Assembly (NCBI GenBank): GCA_965207885.1
Contig: OZ242311.1
Coordinates: 640,001 to 704,000 of the forward strand
Length of the DNA stretch: 64,000 bases
Direction: 5' to 3'
From: Candidatus Latescibacterota bacterium
GTDB taxonomy: Bacteria > Latescibacterota > UBA2968
The number at the start of each line of letters is the position of its first letter. Position 1 is the stretch's first letter. Made by a program: the position numbers and the translations under genes. Positions 45,354 through 59,005 of this stretch are shown piece after piece. Under the pieces are notes generated by a model. The model searched no databases and was not told the origin of the DNA. It worked only from the letters and a program-made list of their open reading frames with translations.

Positions 45354-45390
45354 GAAAAGTGTGAAGGTTGAAGGTTGAAGTGTGAACAAC

Positions 45391-45447
45391 CGTAGGGGCG
45401 AGGCATGCCTCGCCCGTCATCGCGGCAGGGTGTAAGCCGCGATCCAG
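45391..45447 (+). repeat. GTAG-type REP fused to a CGTCA repeat
   Basis: CGTAGGGGCGAGGCATGCCTCGCC directly joined to CGTCATCGCGG..CCGCGATCCAG. Confidence 0.85.
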
Positions 45448-50690: not shown

Positions 50691-51134
50691 ATGAAAATTA
50701 TTCTTACAGCAGATGTGGATACGCTGGGCAATGCTGGCGATGTGGTGGAGGTGAAGGATGGGTACGCGCGAAATTTTTTGCTGCCGCGCTCGGTGGCGTT
50801 GATTGCAAATGAGCGCAATATGGCGGTGTACGAGAAGGTGCGCCAGCAACGCGAAGCCCAACAAGCCCGTGAAACGCGCGATGCCGAGTCTCTGGCAGAG
50901 GCTCTGAAAGAGGTTTCGTGCAATGTGGCTGTCAAGGCAGGCGAAGAGGATCGCATTTTTGGATCGGTGACAGCACAGCAAATAGCAGTCGCGCTCAGTG
51001 ACCTGGGGTTCGATATTGATCGTCGAGACATAGAACTCGAAGAGCCAATTCGAGCACTGGGGGTATATGATGTGCCCATCCGACTTTATGCGGGGGTTGT
51101 GGTGTCTGTGAAGGTTTGGGTGGTTAGAGAGTAG
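50691..51134 (+). CDS. rplI: 50S ribosomal protein L9
   Basis: MKIIL..DV..LG..GDVVEVKDGYARNFLLP, IFGSVT. Confidence 0.97.
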   Translation: MKIILTADVDTLGNAGDVVEVKDGYARNFLLPRSVALIANERNMAVYEKVRQQREAQQARETRDAESLAEALKEVSCNVAVKAGEEDRIFGSVTAQQIAVALSDLGFDIDRRDIELEEPIRALGVYDVPIRLYAGVVVSVKVWVVRE

Positions 51135-51166
51135 GGAAGTGTGAAGTAGGAAGTAGGAAGTGTGAT

Positions 51167-51206
51167 AAAAAAAACGGAGGACGTTTTCGCGTCCTCCGTT
51201 TTTTTT
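51167..51206. terminator. Bidirectional intrinsic terminator
   Basis: A-run-CGGAGGACG-ttttcg-CGTCCTCCG-T-run between convergent genes. Confidence 0.85.
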
Positions 51207-52152
51207 ATGCATTTCTCGCACATCGAAACCCCAAGTTGCCCGTGGAGCTGTCCGGCGTGTTTGCGCTGCGGGCAGCCACGCGGTATCGGTTGCAGTAGGA
51301 GTCGTGACACAAATAGGAGCCGCCGCGCATGCTTTTCGCCTGTCCGATGGGGGGACCCGTGGGGTTCTTTGCGGTGCTTTTGAGGTGGAAGGTGGGGCTG
51401 AACCAGTCGCTGCACCATTCCCAGACGTTGCCCGAGATGTTGTAGATGCCGTAGTTGTTGGGGGGGAAGGATGTGACGGGTGCGGTGCCGATGTGTCCGT
51501 CTGCCCGGGTGTTTTGTTCGGGGAATGTGCCCTGCCAGATGTTGCACATGTGTTTGCCATTGGGTTCGAGGTCGTCGCCCCAGGGGTAGCGCATGCTTTT
51601 TAAGCCGCCCCGTGCGGCAAATTCCCATTCGGCTTCTGTGGGCAGGCGTTTTCCCGCCCAGTTGCAATAGGCGATCGCGTCGTTCCACGAGATGTGGATC
51701 GCGGGGTGATGCCAGCGGTTGTTGATATTTGTGCGGGGTCCTTCGGGGCGGTGCCAGCAGGCGCTGTCAACAGCAAACCACCAGGGGGTATCGACGACGG
51801 TTTGCGAGATGTGCGAGGCGGTGTTGGAGGGGACAAAGAGGTGGAAGACAAAGGACCAGCCAAAGCGTTCGGCTTCGGTTTTGTACGCGGTTGCGCGGAC
51901 GAATTTGGCAAAGTCGGCGTTGGTGACGGCACACTCATCGAGGTAAAAGGGATCGACTGTGGCTTCGCGCACGGGTCCTTCGCCGTCTTCTGCAAAGCCT
52001 TCGTTGCCATCTGTTCCCATGAGAAAGGTGCCGCCCGAGAGGCGTACCATGCCTTTGAGGGATGTATCACTTCTGCGCCGCGTTTTTTGTTTGCGCGTTT
52101 TTCTTTTTTTGGATGAGACAGGTCTGCTCGCACCGCAGCAGGGGGAGGACAT
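51205..52152 (-). CDS. Formylglycine-generating enzyme (SUMF1 family)
   Basis: RLPTEAEWE, GNVWEW, RGGSYLCHDSYCNRYRVAAR, NLGFRC. Confidence 0.93.
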   Translation of the reverse strand: MSSPCCGASRPVSSKKRKTRKQKTRRRSDTSLKGMVRLSGGTFLMGTDGNEGFAEDGEGPVREATVDPFYLDECAVTNADFAKFVRATAYKTEAERFGWSFVFHLFVPSNTASHISQTVVDTPWWFAVDSACWHRPEGPRTNINNRWHHPAIHISWNDAIAYCNWAGKRLPTEAEWEFAARGGLKSMRYPWGDDLEPNGKHMCNIWQGTFPEQNTRADGHIGTAPVTSFPPNNYGIYNISGNVWEWCSDWFSPTFHLKSTAKNPTGPPIGQAKSMRGGSYLCHDSYCNRYRVAARSANTPDSSTGNLGFRCARNA

Positions 52153-52266
52153 AGTGATTCTCCTGAGGTTATGGGTTGCGCGAATACGGGTTTAATGATA
52201 CGATGCGACGTGCGGGCTGTCAAGAGAAGGGAGAAGTGTGAAGGGAGAAGTGTAAGAGGGCACCGT

Positions 52267-52744
52267 CGTCATTGCGGCAGGATGTAAGCCGCAATCCAGA
52301 AGGTTTTATCTGCTAAGAGAAGAGAGAAAGGTCATCAACAAAGCCGTCATCGCGGTATGGTTTTGAGCCGCGATCCAGAAGGTTTTATCTGTCCCTTGAG
52401 GTGTTAATAAAGGGGACAGACTATTTCCGCTTGCTTTTTGTCTGTTTATACTTCATTATTTTTAATGAATTCATTAATCCAGAGGTGTCGGGCAAAGCCT
52501 GCACCGCAATGCCTGCCATATAGAATCATTGCCTATGCGGAGGCACTCGTCATCGCGGTATGTATCCCTGCTCAACATCATGCAGAACCTGTCCCGTAGT
52601 GCCTTTATACGGGAGCCTGCCCCGTAGTGCTTTAATACGGGGGGCATGCGTAAGCCGCGATCCAGAAGGTTTTATCTGCTAAGAGAAGAGAGAAAGGTCA
52701 TCAACAAAGCCGTCATCGCGGTATGGTTTTGAGCCGCGATCCAG
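52267..52744 (+). repeat. Dense cluster of four palindromic repeats with nested modules and a 95 bp direct duplication
   Basis: Copies start at 52267, 52345, 52548, 52711; 52284-52378 matches 52650-52744 with one mismatch. Confidence 0.9.
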
Positions 52745-52756
52745 CGGAATCAACAA

Positions 52757-53044
52757 GTGAATCAACCTTGCGTATATATCATGGCGAGCAAACGCAACGG
52801 AACCCTGTACACTGGCGTTACCTCGAATCTTATCCAACGGGTTTGGCTGCACAAAAATAACCTGGTGGAAGGATTCACGAAGCGTTATAGCATCCACACA
52901 CTGGTTTGGTATGAGGTTCATGAAACAATGCAAAGTGCCATCATGAAGGAGAAGAGGGTGAAGAAATGGAAACGGGTATGGAAGCTTGCATTGATTGAAA
53001 AGAATAATCCAGGATGGCGAGATTTGTACACGGACTTCATCTGA
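52757..53044 (+). CDS. Stand-alone GIY-YIG nuclease (UPF0213-like)
   Basis: VYIMASKRNGTLYTGVTSNL..RV..HK, GFTKRY, LVWYE, AI.KEK..KKWKR.WK..LIE..NP.W.DL. Confidence 0.92.
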   Translation: MNQPCVYIMASKRNGTLYTGVTSNLIQRVWLHKNNLVEGFTKRYSIHTLVWYEVHETMQSAIMKEKRVKKWKRVWKLALIEKNNPGWRDLYTDFI

Positions 53045-53068
53045 CCTTATATTATAAGGATCTTATGA

Positions 53069-53338
53069 ATGGCAAAAACATCAGTCGAAATTCCCGATCA
53101 AAAAATGGCGGAATTGGAAGCCTATAAAGACCGGTTAGGAGAGCTTCTGTTGCTCGGGTTATCTCAGGTCAAAATTCAGGAAGCCCTGTTGCTCTACCAG
53201 CGTGGGCTTATATCAATTGGCAGAGCAGCAGAACTCGCAGATCTAACAGAGCAGGAAATGGTACATCAGGCTCGGATTGTTGGGATCCAACCTCGTTGGA
53301 GTAAAACCCAGGTTCAGGAAGAGATAGTGGAGAATTGA
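53069..53338 (+). CDS. UPF0175-family (antitoxin-like) protein
   Basis: LYQRGLISIGRAAELADL motif. Confidence 0.75.
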   Translation: MAKTSVEIPDQKMAELEAYKDRLGELLLLGLSQVKIQEALLLYQRGLISIGRAAELADLTEQEMVHQARIVGIQPRWSKTQVQEEIVEN

Positions 53339-53347
53339 AATTTTTCT

Positions 53348-53545
53348 ATGCCACGTAAAATTAGGGAACTCATTAAAGACCTTGAGGCTGCTGGGTTTGT
53401 AAATCGTGGCGGAAGAGGAAGTCATAGAAAATTTGTTCATTCCAAAGTTTCTAAATCGGTGATCCTTTCCGGTCAACTTGGTGATGATGCAAAACACTAT
53501 CAAGAGAGAGATGTCAAGGTGGCTATTGAGGTATCAAAAAGATGA
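53348..53545 (+). CDS. hicA: HicA-family toxin
   Basis: RELIKDLEAAGF...GRGSHRKF.H. Confidence 0.88.
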   Translation: MPRKIRELIKDLEAAGFVNRGGRGSHRKFVHSKVSKSVILSGQLGDDAKHYQERDVKVAIEVSKR

Positions 53546-53757
53546 AAAAAAGTGCCCGTTACGCGAAAATAGTGGCCTGGTCGAAAGAGGATCAGTGCTA
53601 TGTTGGAAGATGTCCGGGACTATTTTATGGTGGATGTCACGGCGATGACGAGCAAGAGGTGTTTTCAGAATTGTGTCGCATTGTCGAAGATACCATTGAA
53701 TTATACGAGCGAGACCGCAAACCACTGCCAGTACCCGAGATGCTAAGCATTGCCTGA
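53542..53757 (+). CDS. hicB: HicB-family antitoxin (short)
   Basis: WSKEDQCYVG.CPGL..CHGD...PLP; overlaps the hicA stop. Confidence 0.85.
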   Translation: MKKSARYAKIVAWSKEDQCYVGRCPGLFYGGCHGDDEQEVFSELCRIVEDTIELYERDRKPLPVPEMLSIA

Positions 53758-53788
53758 CTATTTTTTAATTCATATAAGGATTCCTCAC

Positions 53789-54403
53789 ATGACAGAAATG
53801 GAAGTGATTGCCGTGCAGCTTGAACCCAATAGCAATCATCCGCTGGTCTGGTTAAAGGATAAGGACCAGAAGGTTTTTTTGCCCATTGCAATTGGCAATT
53901 TTGAGGCGGTTGCGATTTCTCTGGTGCTTCACGATGAGCCGCCGCCGCGTCCTATTGCGTATGATTTGTTGTGTGCCATTATGGATGGGTTCGATGTACG
54001 CGTCGAGCAAGTGCTGGTCAGTGCGTTGAAAGACGAGACGTTTTTTGCCGAGATTACACTTGTCCGCGATGGGGAGTCGATTGTTATTGATTCGCGCCCG
54101 AGCGATGCGCTGGCATTGGCGTTGCGCGTTGATGCGCCGGTTTTTGTGGCGGACCAGGTGATTGAGGAGGCGGGGCTGTCGGTCAAGCAAGATGTGCCCA
54201 TTGAGGACGGCGAAGATAATATTGCTGCGATTGTTGCGTCTGTCGCAGAGGATGAACCCGCTGAGGAGGCGCCCGATCAGGTGACGCAGCAGGTAGATGC
54301 GCTCAAGGCGCGTTTGCAAGAGGCGGTCGCGCTGGAAGAGTACGAAGAAGCCGCCAGGCTGCGCGACGAAATCGGCAGGCTCGAACACAGTATTGAAAAA
54401 TGA
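53789..54403 (+). CDS. Bifunctional nuclease (DUF151) with C-terminal UVR domain
   Basis: LPIAIG..EA.AI, PPRP..YDL, DSRPSDALALALR, AVALEEYEEAARLRDEI. Confidence 0.9.
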   Translation: MTEMEVIAVQLEPNSNHPLVWLKDKDQKVFLPIAIGNFEAVAISLVLHDEPPPRPIAYDLLCAIMDGFDVRVEQVLVSALKDETFFAEITLVRDGESIVIDSRPSDALALALRVDAPVFVADQVIEEAGLSVKQDVPIEDGEDNIAAIVASVAEDEPAEEAPDQVTQQVDALKARLQEAVALEEYEEAARLRDEIGRLEHSIEK

Positions 54404-54469
54404 TCGCGCGTTATTATAATATTGTATAAGCCGTGATCCAGAAGGTTCTTTATATACAGGACATTATTC

Positions 54470-54769
54470 ATGACCAGAACATTTTCCTATACTCAAGCAC
54501 GCGATAGGCTTGCCAGTCTCTGCAAAGATGTGACGGATGACAGTGATTACGTCATTATCACCCGTCCAGGGCATGAAGATGTCGCTCTGATTTCTGCATC
54601 TGAGCTTTCCAGCCTTATAGAAACTGCACATCTTCTCAGTTCACCCAAAAATGCGAAACGACTGGCAACAGCGCTAAATCGAGCAAAAGCCGGTACAGAA
54701 CCCGCTCAATCCGTTGACGACTTGCGCGGCCTTCACACTTCTTTTCTCTGCGATTCAGTATTGAAATAA
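54470..54769 (+). CDS. Phd/YefM-family antitoxin, no adjacent toxin gene
   Basis: SYTQAR..LA, VIITR, SLIETAHLLSSPKNAKRL. Confidence 0.85.
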   Translation: MTRTFSYTQARDRLASLCKDVTDDSDYVIITRPGHEDVALISASELSSLIETAHLLSSPKNAKRLATALNRAKAGTEPAQSVDDLRGLHTSFLCDSVLK

Positions 54770-55032
54770 AAGCACATATCTTTCACCCTATCCCCACCTC
54801 TATAGATCAAAACGTACACGCTTAACGCCCAGCGCGTTCCACGTGTATGTATCTCTCAAAGTGATTCCTGCATTCAAGAGAAGCCGCCATACAGCATATT
54901 AAAAGCCTGATGCGGCTATTTGAGCTTTTGTCCATACAATGTATCGCTCAATTTCTGTGACGTTGGCCTGATATTTGCTCAGGGTCTGACTGTTGCGTGT
55001 AAAACTCATCCATCAGACTCAGGGCATCTCAC

Positions 55033-55914
55033 ATGGCCGAATATGACACCGTCTCCAAAGATCTGATCCAGACCTATCCCAAAGACTTTATCCGCCTCAC
55101 ACTTGAACAGGACGATGTAGAAGTCCTGGACATCCTCAACACAGAGCAAAACACAGTTGAAACGCGCCACATGGATAGCCTCATTCGCGTCCAGATCGCT
55201 GGTCAGGAGGCATTGGTGCATCACGAGTTTCAAACGACTGACGATCCCTCTATGCCGCTCCGCATGGCGGGCTATATAATACGTGCGATGGGGCAGCACG
55301 GTCTGCCGGTTTCTTCGAGTGTGATCTACTTGCGGCGCAGTGCGGGTCGGCGCGATCCAGGGTATTATGTCCAGGATTTTCTCGGCCGTCGTGTTTTGAT
55401 AGAATACACAGTGATTCGGCTGAGTGAAATAGAGGGACAGGATATTATTGATGGCGGACCTTCGGGCTTGTTTCCGTTCGTGCCGTTGATGAAGCGTCCG
55501 TCTGGAATAGATTCAGAGGCGTGGTTGCATCACTGTGTTGACGCGACGAATGCTTTGCCGGTGGATGAATCAATAAAGATTGACTTTTTGGACAGGATGA
55601 TGATATTGAGTGGGTTAGAGTATGATCCAACGCTGATCAATCGTATTCTATTACAGGAGGGTCTTATGGACGCTATTATGCGCGAATCATCGTTTGCACA
55701 ATACATTAGGCAACAAGGTATAGAACAAGGGGGAAGGCAACGCGCCATTGAAGATATTCTCGACGTGTTGGAGATTCGATTTGATCTGAGTGAAGCACAT
55801 CCCTTATCTGCCCGCATTGCCGCGATTGATGATTTGCAACGCCTGAAGCAGTTGCTCCGTGCAGCGATCCAGGTGTCCAGCCTTGAGGCATTTGAGCAAG
55901 CGTTGGATGGGTGA
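55033..55914 (+). CDS. Rpn/YadD-like (PD-(D/E)xK) protein
   Basis: YDTVSK.L, DSL, HHEFQT..D.SMPLRM..Y, QQGIEQG, LEIRF, IDDLQRLKQL. Confidence 0.75.
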   Translation: MAEYDTVSKDLIQTYPKDFIRLTLEQDDVEVLDILNTEQNTVETRHMDSLIRVQIAGQEALVHHEFQTTDDPSMPLRMAGYIIRAMGQHGLPVSSSVIYLRRSAGRRDPGYYVQDFLGRRVLIEYTVIRLSEIEGQDIIDGGPSGLFPFVPLMKRPSGIDSEAWLHHCVDATNALPVDESIKIDFLDRMMILSGLEYDPTLINRILLQEGLMDAIMRESSFAQYIRQQGIEQGGRQRAIEDILDVLEIRFDLSEAHPLSARIAAIDDLQRLKQLLRAAIQVSSLEAFEQALDG

Positions 55915-55952
55915 CGCGGTTACCCTGAAGCATGACGCCAATAATCCATCAC

Positions 55953-55993
55953 CGTCATCGCGGAGTGGTTTCATCCGCGATCCAGAAGGTTTT
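55953..55993 (+). repeat. CGTCA...TCCAG palindromic repeat (stem variant)
   Basis: CGTCATCGCGGAGTGGTTTCATCCGCGATCCAGAAGGTTTT. Confidence 0.85.
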
Positions 55994-56083
55994 TCTATCT
56001 GACCGCTGGATGTGTCTCCCAACCAGTCCCCGCCCCTCTTACTGTCCCCGTGCCGTTTTCCTCTTCTTCATTATATTATATTT

Positions 56084-57281
56084 CATGGTACACGACAAAA
56101 CTTAAATTGTTTTAAACAGTGGCGGATTACTCAGTAAACGAATGCATATGAGGAACTGTTGGGTTTGTTGGTTTATATTGAGCAGGACATACTGCAAATA
56201 GTCCAACCCATATCGGAAGAGACTTTTCTCCATCCGCCCGTGATTTTTGATCGTCAAAGGATTTGTTTTTGCTATCCATTCGCCGATGATATGCGCCCAG
56301 ATGCAGGCAATGGCCAAAAGCGCGATGAGTTTCTCAATGCGGTCTTGATGTATAAGATGGGTCTCTTCCAGATTAAATCCTCGACTTTTAAGATTGGCAA
56401 AAAGGACTTCAATGCCCCATCGTTTTTTATAGGTATCCAATGCGGCTTGACCTTTTTGGTTGCTGGCAAGAATGAGGTATTGGTCCTTCAATCTTAGTGC
56501 AGACAGATATACAGGCAGGTCATAAACGCGGTGGCGTTTGCACAAGTTGACCTGCTGATGGATATTAAGATTTTCAAACCGTTTTCTTATGGGGATCTCT
56601 CTACCGCCTGATGAGACAAGAGCGTTTTCCTTGATGCGAATAACAAAGGGTATATTTTGTGTGTCTAACCACCTAAACCATTCTCTTCCAATAAATTCTC
56701 TGTCTGCGACGACAACGCGGATATGCGATTTGCAGATGCAGTTGAGCATTTCTTGCATCAAATGGATACGCTCATCACTATTGGAATTGCCCCGTTTTTT
56801 TAACAAGTGCCAACAGATAGGAAAGGCGACCCCTTCATAGATAATGCCTGCGGTTAGGATGTTGATATTGAATTTTCCCAACTTCCAATTGGTGCGATCT
56901 ATTGAGACTATAAAATCCGACTTTATAGGTAATAAGTGCAAGATCAATTGTCTCACACACGCATAGGGTAAGGCAAAGTGGGCAAAGAAGCGTTGGATAC
57001 GACGATAATTAGATTTCTGCTTGACGGTTCCATTGAGTGCGTTTGCCAGTTTCATAAAATTGACGCTACGCAATTTTATCAGCGACAATATGAACGCAGC
57101 GGTAAACGTTATTCGGGCTTTATGCCAGTGAAAATATCCTTGCATAATCGTTTGAAGTTCAATAGTTTCAGGAGACATAGACCTGTGCCTTGTTAAGATG
57201 AGAAAGGTTTGTCTTGGGACATTCAAACCTAACTCTTTTTAGCTTTTTTCACAGGTCTTTTATTTTTTGTCGTGTACTATG
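56084..57281 (-). mobile_element. IS4-family (IS10-like) insertion sequence, copy 2 (1198 bp)
   Basis: Same TIRs as copy 1; 9 bp TSD ATTATATTT. Confidence 0.95.
56102..57226 (-). CDS. IS4-family transposase
   Basis: Translation identical to 32651-33775. Confidence 0.95.
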   Translation of the reverse strand: MNVPRQTFLILTRHRSMSPETIELQTIMQGYFHWHKARITFTAAFILSLIKLRSVNFMKLANALNGTVKQKSNYRRIQRFFAHFALPYACVRQLILHLLPIKSDFIVSIDRTNWKLGKFNINILTAGIIYEGVAFPICWHLLKKRGNSNSDERIHLMQEMLNCICKSHIRVVVADREFIGREWFRWLDTQNIPFVIRIKENALVSSGGREIPIRKRFENLNIHQQVNLCKRHRVYDLPVYLSALRLKDQYLILASNQKGQAALDTYKKRWGIEVLFANLKSRGFNLEETHLIHQDRIEKLIALLAIACIWAHIIGEWIAKTNPLTIKNHGRMEKSLFRYGLDYLQYVLLNINQQTQQFLICIRLLSNPPLFKTI

Positions 57282-57361
57282 ATTATATTTACCAGATATC
57301 TCAACAGCAGACCGCCTGGCGGCAATGGGGATTGGTGTAAGTTTTCTCTTACGGAGTTGAA

Positions 57362-59005
57362 ATGGCAAGAAGAAGAACGAGAAGGACGCGTCGCGATTCG
57401 CACGGGGATCGGCAGAGGTCGTCAGTTGCTGTGGTAGATCGTTTGTTGCATTTGCAGTCGCCCGATGAACGGCCGTGGAAGTTTTTGTTGCCGGTGCTTG
57501 TTTTGGCATTTGCGGTGCGTGCGGCGATTGCGCTGTGTGGCGATTTTGTTTTGCACCCGGATGAGGTGATGCAGTATTTGGAGCCGGCGCATCGTCTGGT
57601 CTTTGGCAGTGGGGTTACTTATTGGGAGTTTTTCTACGGGGCGCGTGCATGGCTGGTGCCGGGGATGGTTGCCGGGATGTTGAAGGTGTTTGACGTTGTT
57701 GGGCTTGGCGAGCCGTTCTGGTATGTGGGTGGTGTCAAGCTGATGTTTTGTGCAATTTCTCTGCTGATTCCAGTGGGGATGTATTTTTTTGCGCGGCGGC
57801 ATTTTGGGGAGTTATCGGCGCGGGTCGCGCTATTGGCGGGTGCGTTCTGGTATGAGTTGGCGGGGTTTGCCCACAAGCCGATGACGGAGTTTGTGGCTAC
57901 GGCTTTGCTGATGGTGTTGCTGGTGCTGTGTGTGCGGTCGTCGGTGGATAGGGTGGGGACGGTCTATCTGGTGGCGCTCATAGCGGTGCTGGTGGCGGCG
58001 GTGCGGTTGCAGTACGCGCCGATTGCATTGTTGTTTTTGGGTGTGTTCTTTTTGAGGACGGGGAAGCGGGTTCATCTCGCGGTTGTTGCAGGTGTGTTTC
58101 TGTTGGCGGTGGGCCTGTTTGATGCGCTGACGTGGGATGGCGGTTTGTTTCATTCCTATATTGCGAATATCCGTTTCAATCTCATCGTTGACCAGGGGCG
58201 CGCTGGCGAGACGCCCATATACCAGTTTTTGTGGTGGTTTTTGCTGACGAGTGTCGGGTTGGGTGCGCTGTGTGTGGTTGTCGCACTGCGCGATCTGCGG
58301 CGTTATGGGTTTTTGCTGGCGATGGTGGCTCTGGTGTTGCTGGTTCATTCTGTGCAGGCGCACAAGGAGTATCGGTTCGTTTTTGCGGTTGTTCCGCTGT
58401 GGCTTGTGATTGGCGCAGATGTGGTTGTGCGAGCCTTCGGGAATGCGCGTGTGTGGGGATTGGTGGGCGTTTTGTTCGCGGCAATTTCGATAGGTGGGGT
58501 TCTGAATGCGCTGCCTGCCCAGGATCAGGTGTATCGCGCTTTTTCCAGGGAGACGGGGAAGATGGGGTTTGTCCGCGGTCAGGATCCGATTTTTGCCGCG
58601 TATCGCTATCTGGCCCACGCGCCCGGTGTTCTGGGCGTGTGGCAGGTTGATCGGCCCTATTATAAGCTCCCCGGATATTACTATTTGCACCGCGAAATAC
58701 CGTTTTACGATGTGTATTCGGGGCGGGAAATAAACAAAAGTCTGGAGATAACAGCGGCCTCGGTTAGCCATATTGTGGCGGCGGATACCAGTCTCGCCAA
58801 TCCCATTTTCGGCTATACGGTGGAGAAGCAATTCGGCGATGTCCAGATCTGGCGCCGCGACGAGAATGATGCGCCGGTCCGTCAATGGGAGACGTACAAT
58901 CCGATCATCGTCATCGGTTTGAAACGGGTTTTGGCGCACCTCTATCCCAATGCGCCAAAACCTCCGGCTAATAGTGGTATCAGATTCGCGGCTGAAAGCA
59001 GGTAA
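57362..59005 (+). CDS. GT22 (PIG-B/Alg9-like) membrane mannosyltransferase
   Basis: HPDEVMQYLEPAHRLVFG..V.YWEF..G.R, HS...HKEYRF. Confidence 0.8.
   Translation: MARRRTRRTRRDSHGDRQRSSVAVVDRLLHLQSPDERPWKFLLPVLVLAFAVRAAIALCGDFVLHPDEVMQYLEPAHRLVFGSGVTYWEFFYGARAWLVPGMVAGMLKVFDVVGLGEPFWYVGGVKLMFCAISLLIPVGMYFFARRHFGELSARVALLAGAFWYELAGFAHKPMTEFVATALLMVLLVLCVRSSVDRVGTVYLVALIAVLVAAVRLQYAPIALLFLGVFFLRTGKRVHLAVVAGVFLLAVGLFDALTWDGGLFHSYIANIRFNLIVDQGRAGETPIYQFLWWFLLTSVGLGALCVVVALRDLRRYGFLLAMVALVLLVHSVQAHKEYRFVFAVVPLWLVIGADVVVRAFGNARVWGLVGVLFAAISIGGVLNALPAQDQVYRAFSRETGKMGFVRGQDPIFAAYRYLAHAPGVLGVWQVDRPYYKLPGYYYLHREIPFYDVYSGREINKSLEITAASVSHIVAADTSLANPIFGYTVEKQFGDVQIWRRDENDAPVRQWETYNPIIVIGLKRVLAHLYPNAPKPPANSGIRFAAESR

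Follow-up and report, generated by a model that had tools for sequence, protein, structure and literature searches.

The small GIY-YIG protein encoded at 52757-53044 of the window (here, the whole 64,000-nucleotide stretch that was analysed, from the one-contig, 6.23-Mb Candidatus Latescibacterota genome G000) is very probably a member of the Ssn family of nucleases, and it lies directly behind a cluster of CGTC-tagged hairpins. The gene-repeat pairing, treated as undescribed in an earlier note on this DNA, is already on record together with its analogy to REP/RAYT systems, which was offered there as a hypothesis (Chenal 2025, PMC11893778); what is new is the lineage and the specificity, and the enzyme may add another ssDNA cutter to the tool set. 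These hairpins are probably the cognate motif of the nuclease, in a long-loop variant that only some members of a single Candidatus Latescibacterota genus have; for the explanation as a whole, with its route of spread, the odds are about even. The repeats show a pronounced polarity with respect to replication and a density gradient centred on the ssn region, and we give a probability of roughly 0.45 to the reading that their spread is initiated by Ssn and coupled to the replication fork.

The ssn locus

All four CGTC-hairpin-CCAG units and the nuclease gene occupy the + strand, between two core genes that anchor the locus:

51205..52152, - strand: FGE-sulfatase-domain gene, left core anchor, in 20/20 congeneric genomes
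52267..52299, + strand: repeat unit 1, with CGTC tag, 8-bp stem (T-A type), 9-nt loop and CCAG tail
52284..52378, + strand: first copy of a 95-nt duplication, 99% identical to the second copy
52345..52378, + strand: repeat unit 2, stem type C-G
52431..52460, + strand: promoter-like block, TTGCTT-18-TATATT in relatives, conserved among congeners
52548..52665, + strand: repeat unit 3, stem as in the other units, 96-nt loop with two nested hairpin modules
52650..52744, + strand: second copy of the 95-nt duplication
52711..52744, + strand: repeat unit 4, beginning 46 nt 5' of the nuclease start codon
52757..53044, + strand: single-domain GIY-YIG nuclease of Ssn type (95 aa; PF01541, E 3.5e-14), with GTG as start codon
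53069..53338, + strand: UPF0175 gene, accessory, in the same variable slot as ssn; presence varies among relatives
53348..53545, + strand: HicA gene, accessory, in the same variable slot as ssn; presence varies among relatives
53542..53757, + strand: 71-aa ORF in HicB position, no Pfam match; accessory, variable slot
53750..54403, + strand: BFN-domain/UVR gene, right core anchor

The arrangement first read from this region, four CGTCA-hairpin-TCCAG copies with nested modules and a 95 bp duplication across 52267-52744, held in every detail that was checked, as did the placement of the GIY-YIG gene, whose GTG start follows the end of unit 4 by 12 nt. Folded as DNA, unit 1 reaches -10.3 kcal/mol (z -3.3), and the loop of unit 3 encloses a 28-nt direct pair (52585-52612 and 52613-52640). 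The cluster was rightly called the densest, as this is the sole 1-kb stretch of the genome with four of its 134 copies. The repeat does occupy many intergenic gaps of the window, which holds eleven further complete units, every one on the + strand. The absence of a copy immediately downstream of the gene also stands: no full repeat lies directly on its 3' side, the right half of one is found near 54431, and the next full copy is at 55953. Short-read contigs of run X1 are identical, with 0 differing letters, to 52114-52323, 52357-52689 and 52715-53758, which makes an assembly artefact less likely, although the check is not independent if X1 is, as it may be, the source sample. In two runs, RNA contigs span the core genes on either side but leave ssn uncovered, which is no evidence either way.

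The block at 52431-52460 is kept in 16/20 congeneric genomes, both with and without ssn, and was not flagged by a consensus promoter scan; judged from the sequence, it probably serves the host as promoter for the BFN-domain gene that follows, with the ssn cassette sitting behind it. The spacer at 52745-52759 is unlike the AT-rich spacer of the orthologues, and the start codon is GTG here and ATG in the orthologues, differences that may lower translation. Further along the window, and close to the ssn locus, are an Rpn-family nuclease gene (55033-55914; TIGR01784 below cut-off, with many paralogues genome-wide) and a DDE transposase gene (PF01609; 56102-57226).

Probable kinship with the Ssn/SRM system

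The nuclease gene is single-copy in G000, where the UvrC-sized GIY-YIG genes are separate genes, and PF01541 is the only Pfam domain of its product, a single-domain protein within the <150 aa class. It thereby resembles the Ssn family (cd10448), typified by SsnA of Neisseria meningitidis, whose members are single-domain GIY-YIG proteins of ~94 aa with CGTC-tagged NTS/SRM hairpins at their flanks (PMC11893778). Residues Y7, Y18, R28, H32, E65 and N84 are invariant in 17 aligned sequences, and the spacing of Y7, Y18 and E65 equals that of the essential SsnA residues Y6, Y17 and E64, an equivalence by spacing and not by alignment to SsnA. The predicted structure (pLDDT 94) displays the GIY-YIG fold; its top Foldseek matches are GIY-YIG domains at 21-29% identity, none at E<=0.001, and a PDB sequence search returned no match. 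The UPF0213/YhbQ-like and UvrC/Slx1 GIY-YIG domains share this fold and are more distant, and no CGTC hairpin was found at the homologues of 30-37% identity that were scanned.

The protein nests among homologues of 63-76% identity with NTS/SRM flanks. The best 80 of 345 GTDB homologues were taken, four of them congeneric orthologues, and 71 of these loci had enough flanking sequence. A CGTC hairpin lies <=500 nt from the gene at 62 of the 71 (shuffled flanks, 0), on both gene sides at 50, and at a density of 2.8 per kb compared to 0.25 per kb at 2-3 kb away. The published SRM pattern, an operational search string, fits 48 of the same 71 loci and so misses, as a net count, 14 of the 62 that bear hairpins; the NTS consensus (<=1 mismatch) is present at 8 of the best 80. 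The flanks of homologues, which the earlier note had named as a check, are thus enriched in hairpins, and its view that nuclease and hairpins belong together agrees both with this enrichment and with the published pairing. A quick, weakly supported tree places together the Latescibacterota proteins and four long-loop carriers, a grouping no more than suggestive of protein-repeat co-variation.

Published work describes binding of the hairpin by Ssn as ssDNA and on one strand only, with a cut a few bases upstream, and ssDNA cleavage has been demonstrated for four homologues (PMC11893778). By analogy, the earlier claim that the nuclease recognises or cuts these hairpins is probably correct, and the local hairpin is predicted to be bound only as the CGTC-first single strand and to be cut a few bases 5' of it. 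The local repeat shares with NTS/SRM (PMC11893778) the CGTC tag, an 8-bp stem opening with AT, a C after the stem, an intergenic population in the hundreds clustered at the gene, the presence of NTS/SRM at close homologues of the protein, and a symbiont host, as sponge metagenomes contain part of the window. It differs in its stem (ATYGCGGC), in a loop of 9-10 nt or longer, and in the nested hairpins that are possible within it, and 0/116 local copies fit the published SRM pattern (PMC11893778). Repeats at the gene are confined here to its upstream side, with no inverted copy, whereas they flank both sides in 42% of the published homologues, where this is not obligatory (PMC11893778), and at the orthologues in the congeneric genomes G009 and G004. 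The replication-linked polarity and chromosome-scale gradient seen here go beyond the published account, whose main text and searched supplements name neither leading or lagging strand, nor the replication fork, nor Latescibacter (PMC11893778); a literature search, with most subscription papers outside its range, returned no paper on the polarity of SRM, dRS3 or CGTC repeats.

The units also resemble the CGTC-tagged REPs, for which no dedicated enzyme was known to Di Nocera 2013 (PMC3733652), in the CGTC/TGTC tag, 8-9 bp stems with AT at positions 1-2, and a CCA tail. Those REPs have loops of 4-5 nt and are mostly arranged as head-to-head dimers (PMC3733652), whereas the present units are long-loop singletons or same-strand tandems. 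One small nuclease gene accompanied by many hairpins recognised as ssDNA recalls the layout of REP/RAYT (PMC6006769, PMC3971601). The enzymes of REP/RAYT and IS200/IS605, however, are HUH tyrosine transposases that join strands, whereas the present nuclease is of GIY-YIG type and lacks an HUH domain. The tags also differ, CGTC/TGTC here and GTAG/GTGG in REP/RAYT, and inverted doublets are absent. A RAYT partner can be rejected, as the earlier note had it: the genome's sole Y1_Tnp match (PF01797) lies 0.76 Mb off and, being followed by an ORF that we take to be TnpB-like from its TnpB motifs, is an IS605-type tnpA.

Repeat distribution and locus history

The G000 genome contains 113 strict copies of the repeat, whereas order-4 Markov sequence yields none in 2 Mb; once long loops are allowed the copies number 134, with 19 long-loop matches genome-wide. 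The variable stem pair covaries across the 134 copies (C-G in 88, T-A in 44, mismatched in 2), none of which has an inverted neighbour at a distance of up to 1 kb. In 79/134 cases (control, 0/134) a copy has >=15 nt of its 5' flank in common with another, and the lengths of these common flanks form a continuous range without a sharp boundary, a variability more in keeping with repair or template switching as the copying route than with the cut-and-paste movement of a defined unit. The sites turn over fast: the congener G020, whose FGE gene is 97% identical, has the repeat at only 1/31 alignable G000 sites. Comparison of G000 with its relatives yielded no clean filled/empty site pairs for an inserted unit, and other repeats replace the intergenic DNA instead.

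Density reaches 260 per Mb within 25 kb of ssn and falls to 6.6 per Mb beyond 1.6 Mb; it is 20-40 per Mb near dnaA, a low value that rules out an origin-proximal hotspot. Correspondingly, 37% of intergenic gaps <=50 kb from ssn hold a copy, compared to 1.4% far away. The gene ranks in the top 1-2% of positions for density in G000, G004 and G019, and in the Chloroflexota genome G046 at its best homologue; the three Latescibacterota peaks, which lie at ssn and not at dnaA, form one syntenic region and thus count as one observation. The lists used comprise 100 of 108 matches for G042, 100 of 125 for G019, and the T-type only for G004, and G044 was used for neither density nor polarity. Among unrelated genomes, G042 and G045 have no peak at the gene, G043 a weak one (8.6%), and G046 none at three of its four homologue matches, so that a general cis-gradient, supported at the 5% level by only 1/4 of them (G046), was rejected.

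Within the genus the repeat is present in 18/21 genomes, with 0-2 copies in the four most distant congeners, and it is found in 0/20 genomes of other genera. An intact ssn orthologue (82-99%) occurs in 6/21 genomes and a 36-codon fragment in one. What lies between the promoter-like block and the BFN gene varies: ssn, UPF0175, hicA or nothing may occupy this slot. In G019 and G004, ssn follows an Rpn gene and is shifted along by ~4 and ~22 kb. The orthologues of G009, G019 and G004 have a repeat at -45/-46, and in G007, G014 and G017 long-loop copies end just 5' of the ssn start. The ssn gene of G017 (L040) is cut after codon 36 by a loss that reaches into a downstream gene, one that in G014 (L043) stands behind an intact ssn, a comparison showing decay of ssn in place. 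At L084-L089 and L094 (G004, G015 and G014; syntenic to window 53000-57500), Rpn, UPF0175 and ssn follow the BFN gene in changing order, often each with same-strand repeats in front, in a cassette-array-like manner, and the repeats may be shuffling points.

These distributions bear on the most serious alternative to Ssn-initiated spread, which we consider possible though not the favoured account: that the role of Ssn is to screen incoming DNA as an ssDNA gate while general processes copy the repeats, with the gene region merely an insertion hotspot and with recombination, template switching or another enzyme shaping all intergenic repeats of the genus. Such a gate is known from Neisseria, where a role of SsnA in transformation, which Ssn lowers, has been demonstrated (PMC11893778). 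The present genome has a full ComEC-family gene and may be competent, and the slot also accepts UPF0175, HicA and Rpn genes. Support comes, too, from genomes that are repeat-rich without the gene. The richest, G015, has 286 copies, with a dense peak in the same region but without a gene, and no orthologue is detectable in it with this query either genome-wide or in 60 kb around the locus; ten further congeners have 33-92 copies and no intact orthologue. The earlier note had counted repeat-rich genomes without the gene as refuting its proposal, and G015, as judged with this query, partly answers to that description, but in the median carriers are the richer class: they hold 47-227 copies and the other eleven of the subclade 33-286, with medians of 120 vs 66 (one-sided p 0.03, among kin that are not independent and with the four distant genomes left out). 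The correlation of gene presence with repeat abundance that it had named as a check is seen within those limits, and it weighs against the gate, as does the confinement of the repeat to the subclade that carries or has possibly lost ssn.

Both the peak and the polarity are shared by other repeat families, which favours a general process. The genome has 118 GTAG-type palindromes and no RAYT match; one lies <=60 nt upstream of 22/134 CGTC units and downstream of only 3. GTAG-type palindromes and G-rich heptamers lying >400 nt from any copy also peak in the ssn region (top 2.2% and 7.6%), and both families are biased to the leading strand (90/118 and 29/39). Locus enrichment is nevertheless greater for the present repeat, at 20 loci vs a mean of 3.4, than for the unlinked GTAG palindromes, at 7 vs 2.4. 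Polarity and gradient are both firmly observed, and the confounds to them are real.

Strand polarity and the route of spread

In G000, the CGTC strand is the G/T-rich (leading) strand in 119/134 copies (p 3e-21 if copies are independent), as judged by third codon positions within 25 kb and our own gene calls. The polarity is present in all four contexts of neighbouring genes (upstream/downstream in the frame of the repeat: ++ 53, -- 36, -+ 28, +- 16), and called genes lie on the same strand in only 2619/5024 cases (52%). The skew is blocky, a sign that the sequence contains inversions or misjoins, and the orientation of the repeats changes with the blocks. Relatives agree, with 31/37 copies on the G-rich strand in G004, 13/14 in G020, and 60/60 in a mixed set drawn mostly from the syntenic region of ten congeners; the regions scored in other genomes were 20 x 20 kb each, picked for holding repeats, and contiguous in G020. 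Since dnaA (332.7 kb) marks a change of skew from minus to plus, and the G-rich strand carries the 5S rRNA and L6 genes, the G/T-rich strand has the leading-strand sequence. Leading-strand sequence serves as the template of the lagging strand, and hence the strand predicted to be cleavable would be exposed at the fork in ~89% of copies.

An orientation bias arising from use of the lagging-strand template is known for IS200/IS605 (PMC6006769, PMC3971601). In the mechanism that we favour, single-stranded template exposed at the replication fork would be cut by Ssn next to a hairpin. Repair of that cut by template switching or recombination of the host would then place a copy of the hairpin, together with flank of varying length, in intergenic DNA and keep its orientation relative to the fork. 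Ssn would act here as a trigger and not as a strand-joining transposase. To our knowledge, GIY-YIG enzymes form no covalent intermediate, and Ssn alone would thus be unable to join strands. The fuller proposal, in which Ssn is a hydrolytic, non-transposase mobiliser whose cuts on the fork template are copied by host repair preferentially near the gene with the founder orientation kept, is more doubtful. Were it true, it would explain a near-complete replichore polarity that is lineage-specific (G-rich in Latescibacterota, C-rich in two Dehalococcoidia) as well as the variable flanks; the gradient round the ssn region would be a fossil persisting after loss of the gene, and CGTC-type REPs would gain their missing route of amplification. 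The spread of SRM is made testable by a genus with many single-contig genomes in which ssn is carried, lost or moved, combined with the polarity and the distance gradient.

Polarity could, alternatively, arise after insertion, by purging of one orientation at the fork, or through choice of G/T-rich or C-rich target sequence, an account that we regard as improbable despite the opposite sign met in Dehalococcoidia. There, NTS-type repeats are on the G-rich strand in only 1/44 copies (G042) and 2/21 (G043), and the cleavable strand would lie on the protected template if the G-rich strand leads, as the dnaA skew switch and the L6 operon suggest for G042. The available text of PMC5291525 and 10.1101/345173 gives no answer on the sign of the skew. 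In G042 (the genome of L119; L179-L198), blocks as short as 20 kb alternate in GC skew, and NTS-type singletons of near-identical sequence track these changes, with 45/46 on the C-rich strand, a behaviour expected of target choice or later purging. The Chloroflexota genome G046, with weak skew, shows no polarity (6/12). A universal polarity is ruled out, as the sign in G042 and G043 is opposite to that in Latescibacterota. Purging, however, meets the difficulty that one enzyme geometry is unable to give both signs. Against target choice, the flanks of 30/110 scored leading-strand copies in G000 are not rich in G/T, and on the leading strand only 69% of background intergenic DNA is G/T-rich, compared to the 89% polarity of the repeat; local flank composition is no explanation for the polarity.

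That the repeats are RNA elements, such as terminators or stabilisers, with the nuclease gene a passenger, is largely refuted and very improbable: 133/134 copies are intergenic, most are followed by a T-rich tail, and RNA roles have been suggested for tagged REPs (Di Nocera 2013, PMC3733652), but the orientation of the present copies is independent of gene direction in the four contexts above, which rules out a terminator role, their sites are not conserved between G000 and G020, the gene-hairpin link extends across phyla, and SsnA is without RNA binding (PMC11893778).

The intergenic DNA of the genus is, more widely, a fast-changing mosaic of repeats, including GTAG-type palindromes, runs of G-rich heptamers, and CGCAGATG-type and AACGAATC-type elements, with examples at window positions 45390-45415, 51131-51165 and 52221-52255. 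A second Ssn-like gene (~46% identical) is located elsewhere at L012, L013, L015, L026 and L027 (G012, G020, G017, G014 and G004), and its empty site is at about 5,803,715 of G000:C1. The repeat associated with it is an inverted pair, TGTCATTCTGAGC.../...GCTCAGCATGACA, which among 17 genomes searched is present in the five carriers; G009 has a single copy, and G015, in which no second Ssn-like gene was found with this query, has 88 without strand polarity (44/44). The G045 genome (that of L160) contains at least 15 dispersed copies of an Ssn-like C-terminal fragment (residues 51-95), several with a stop, near NTS-type arrays, and these fragments are possibly non-autonomous derivatives.
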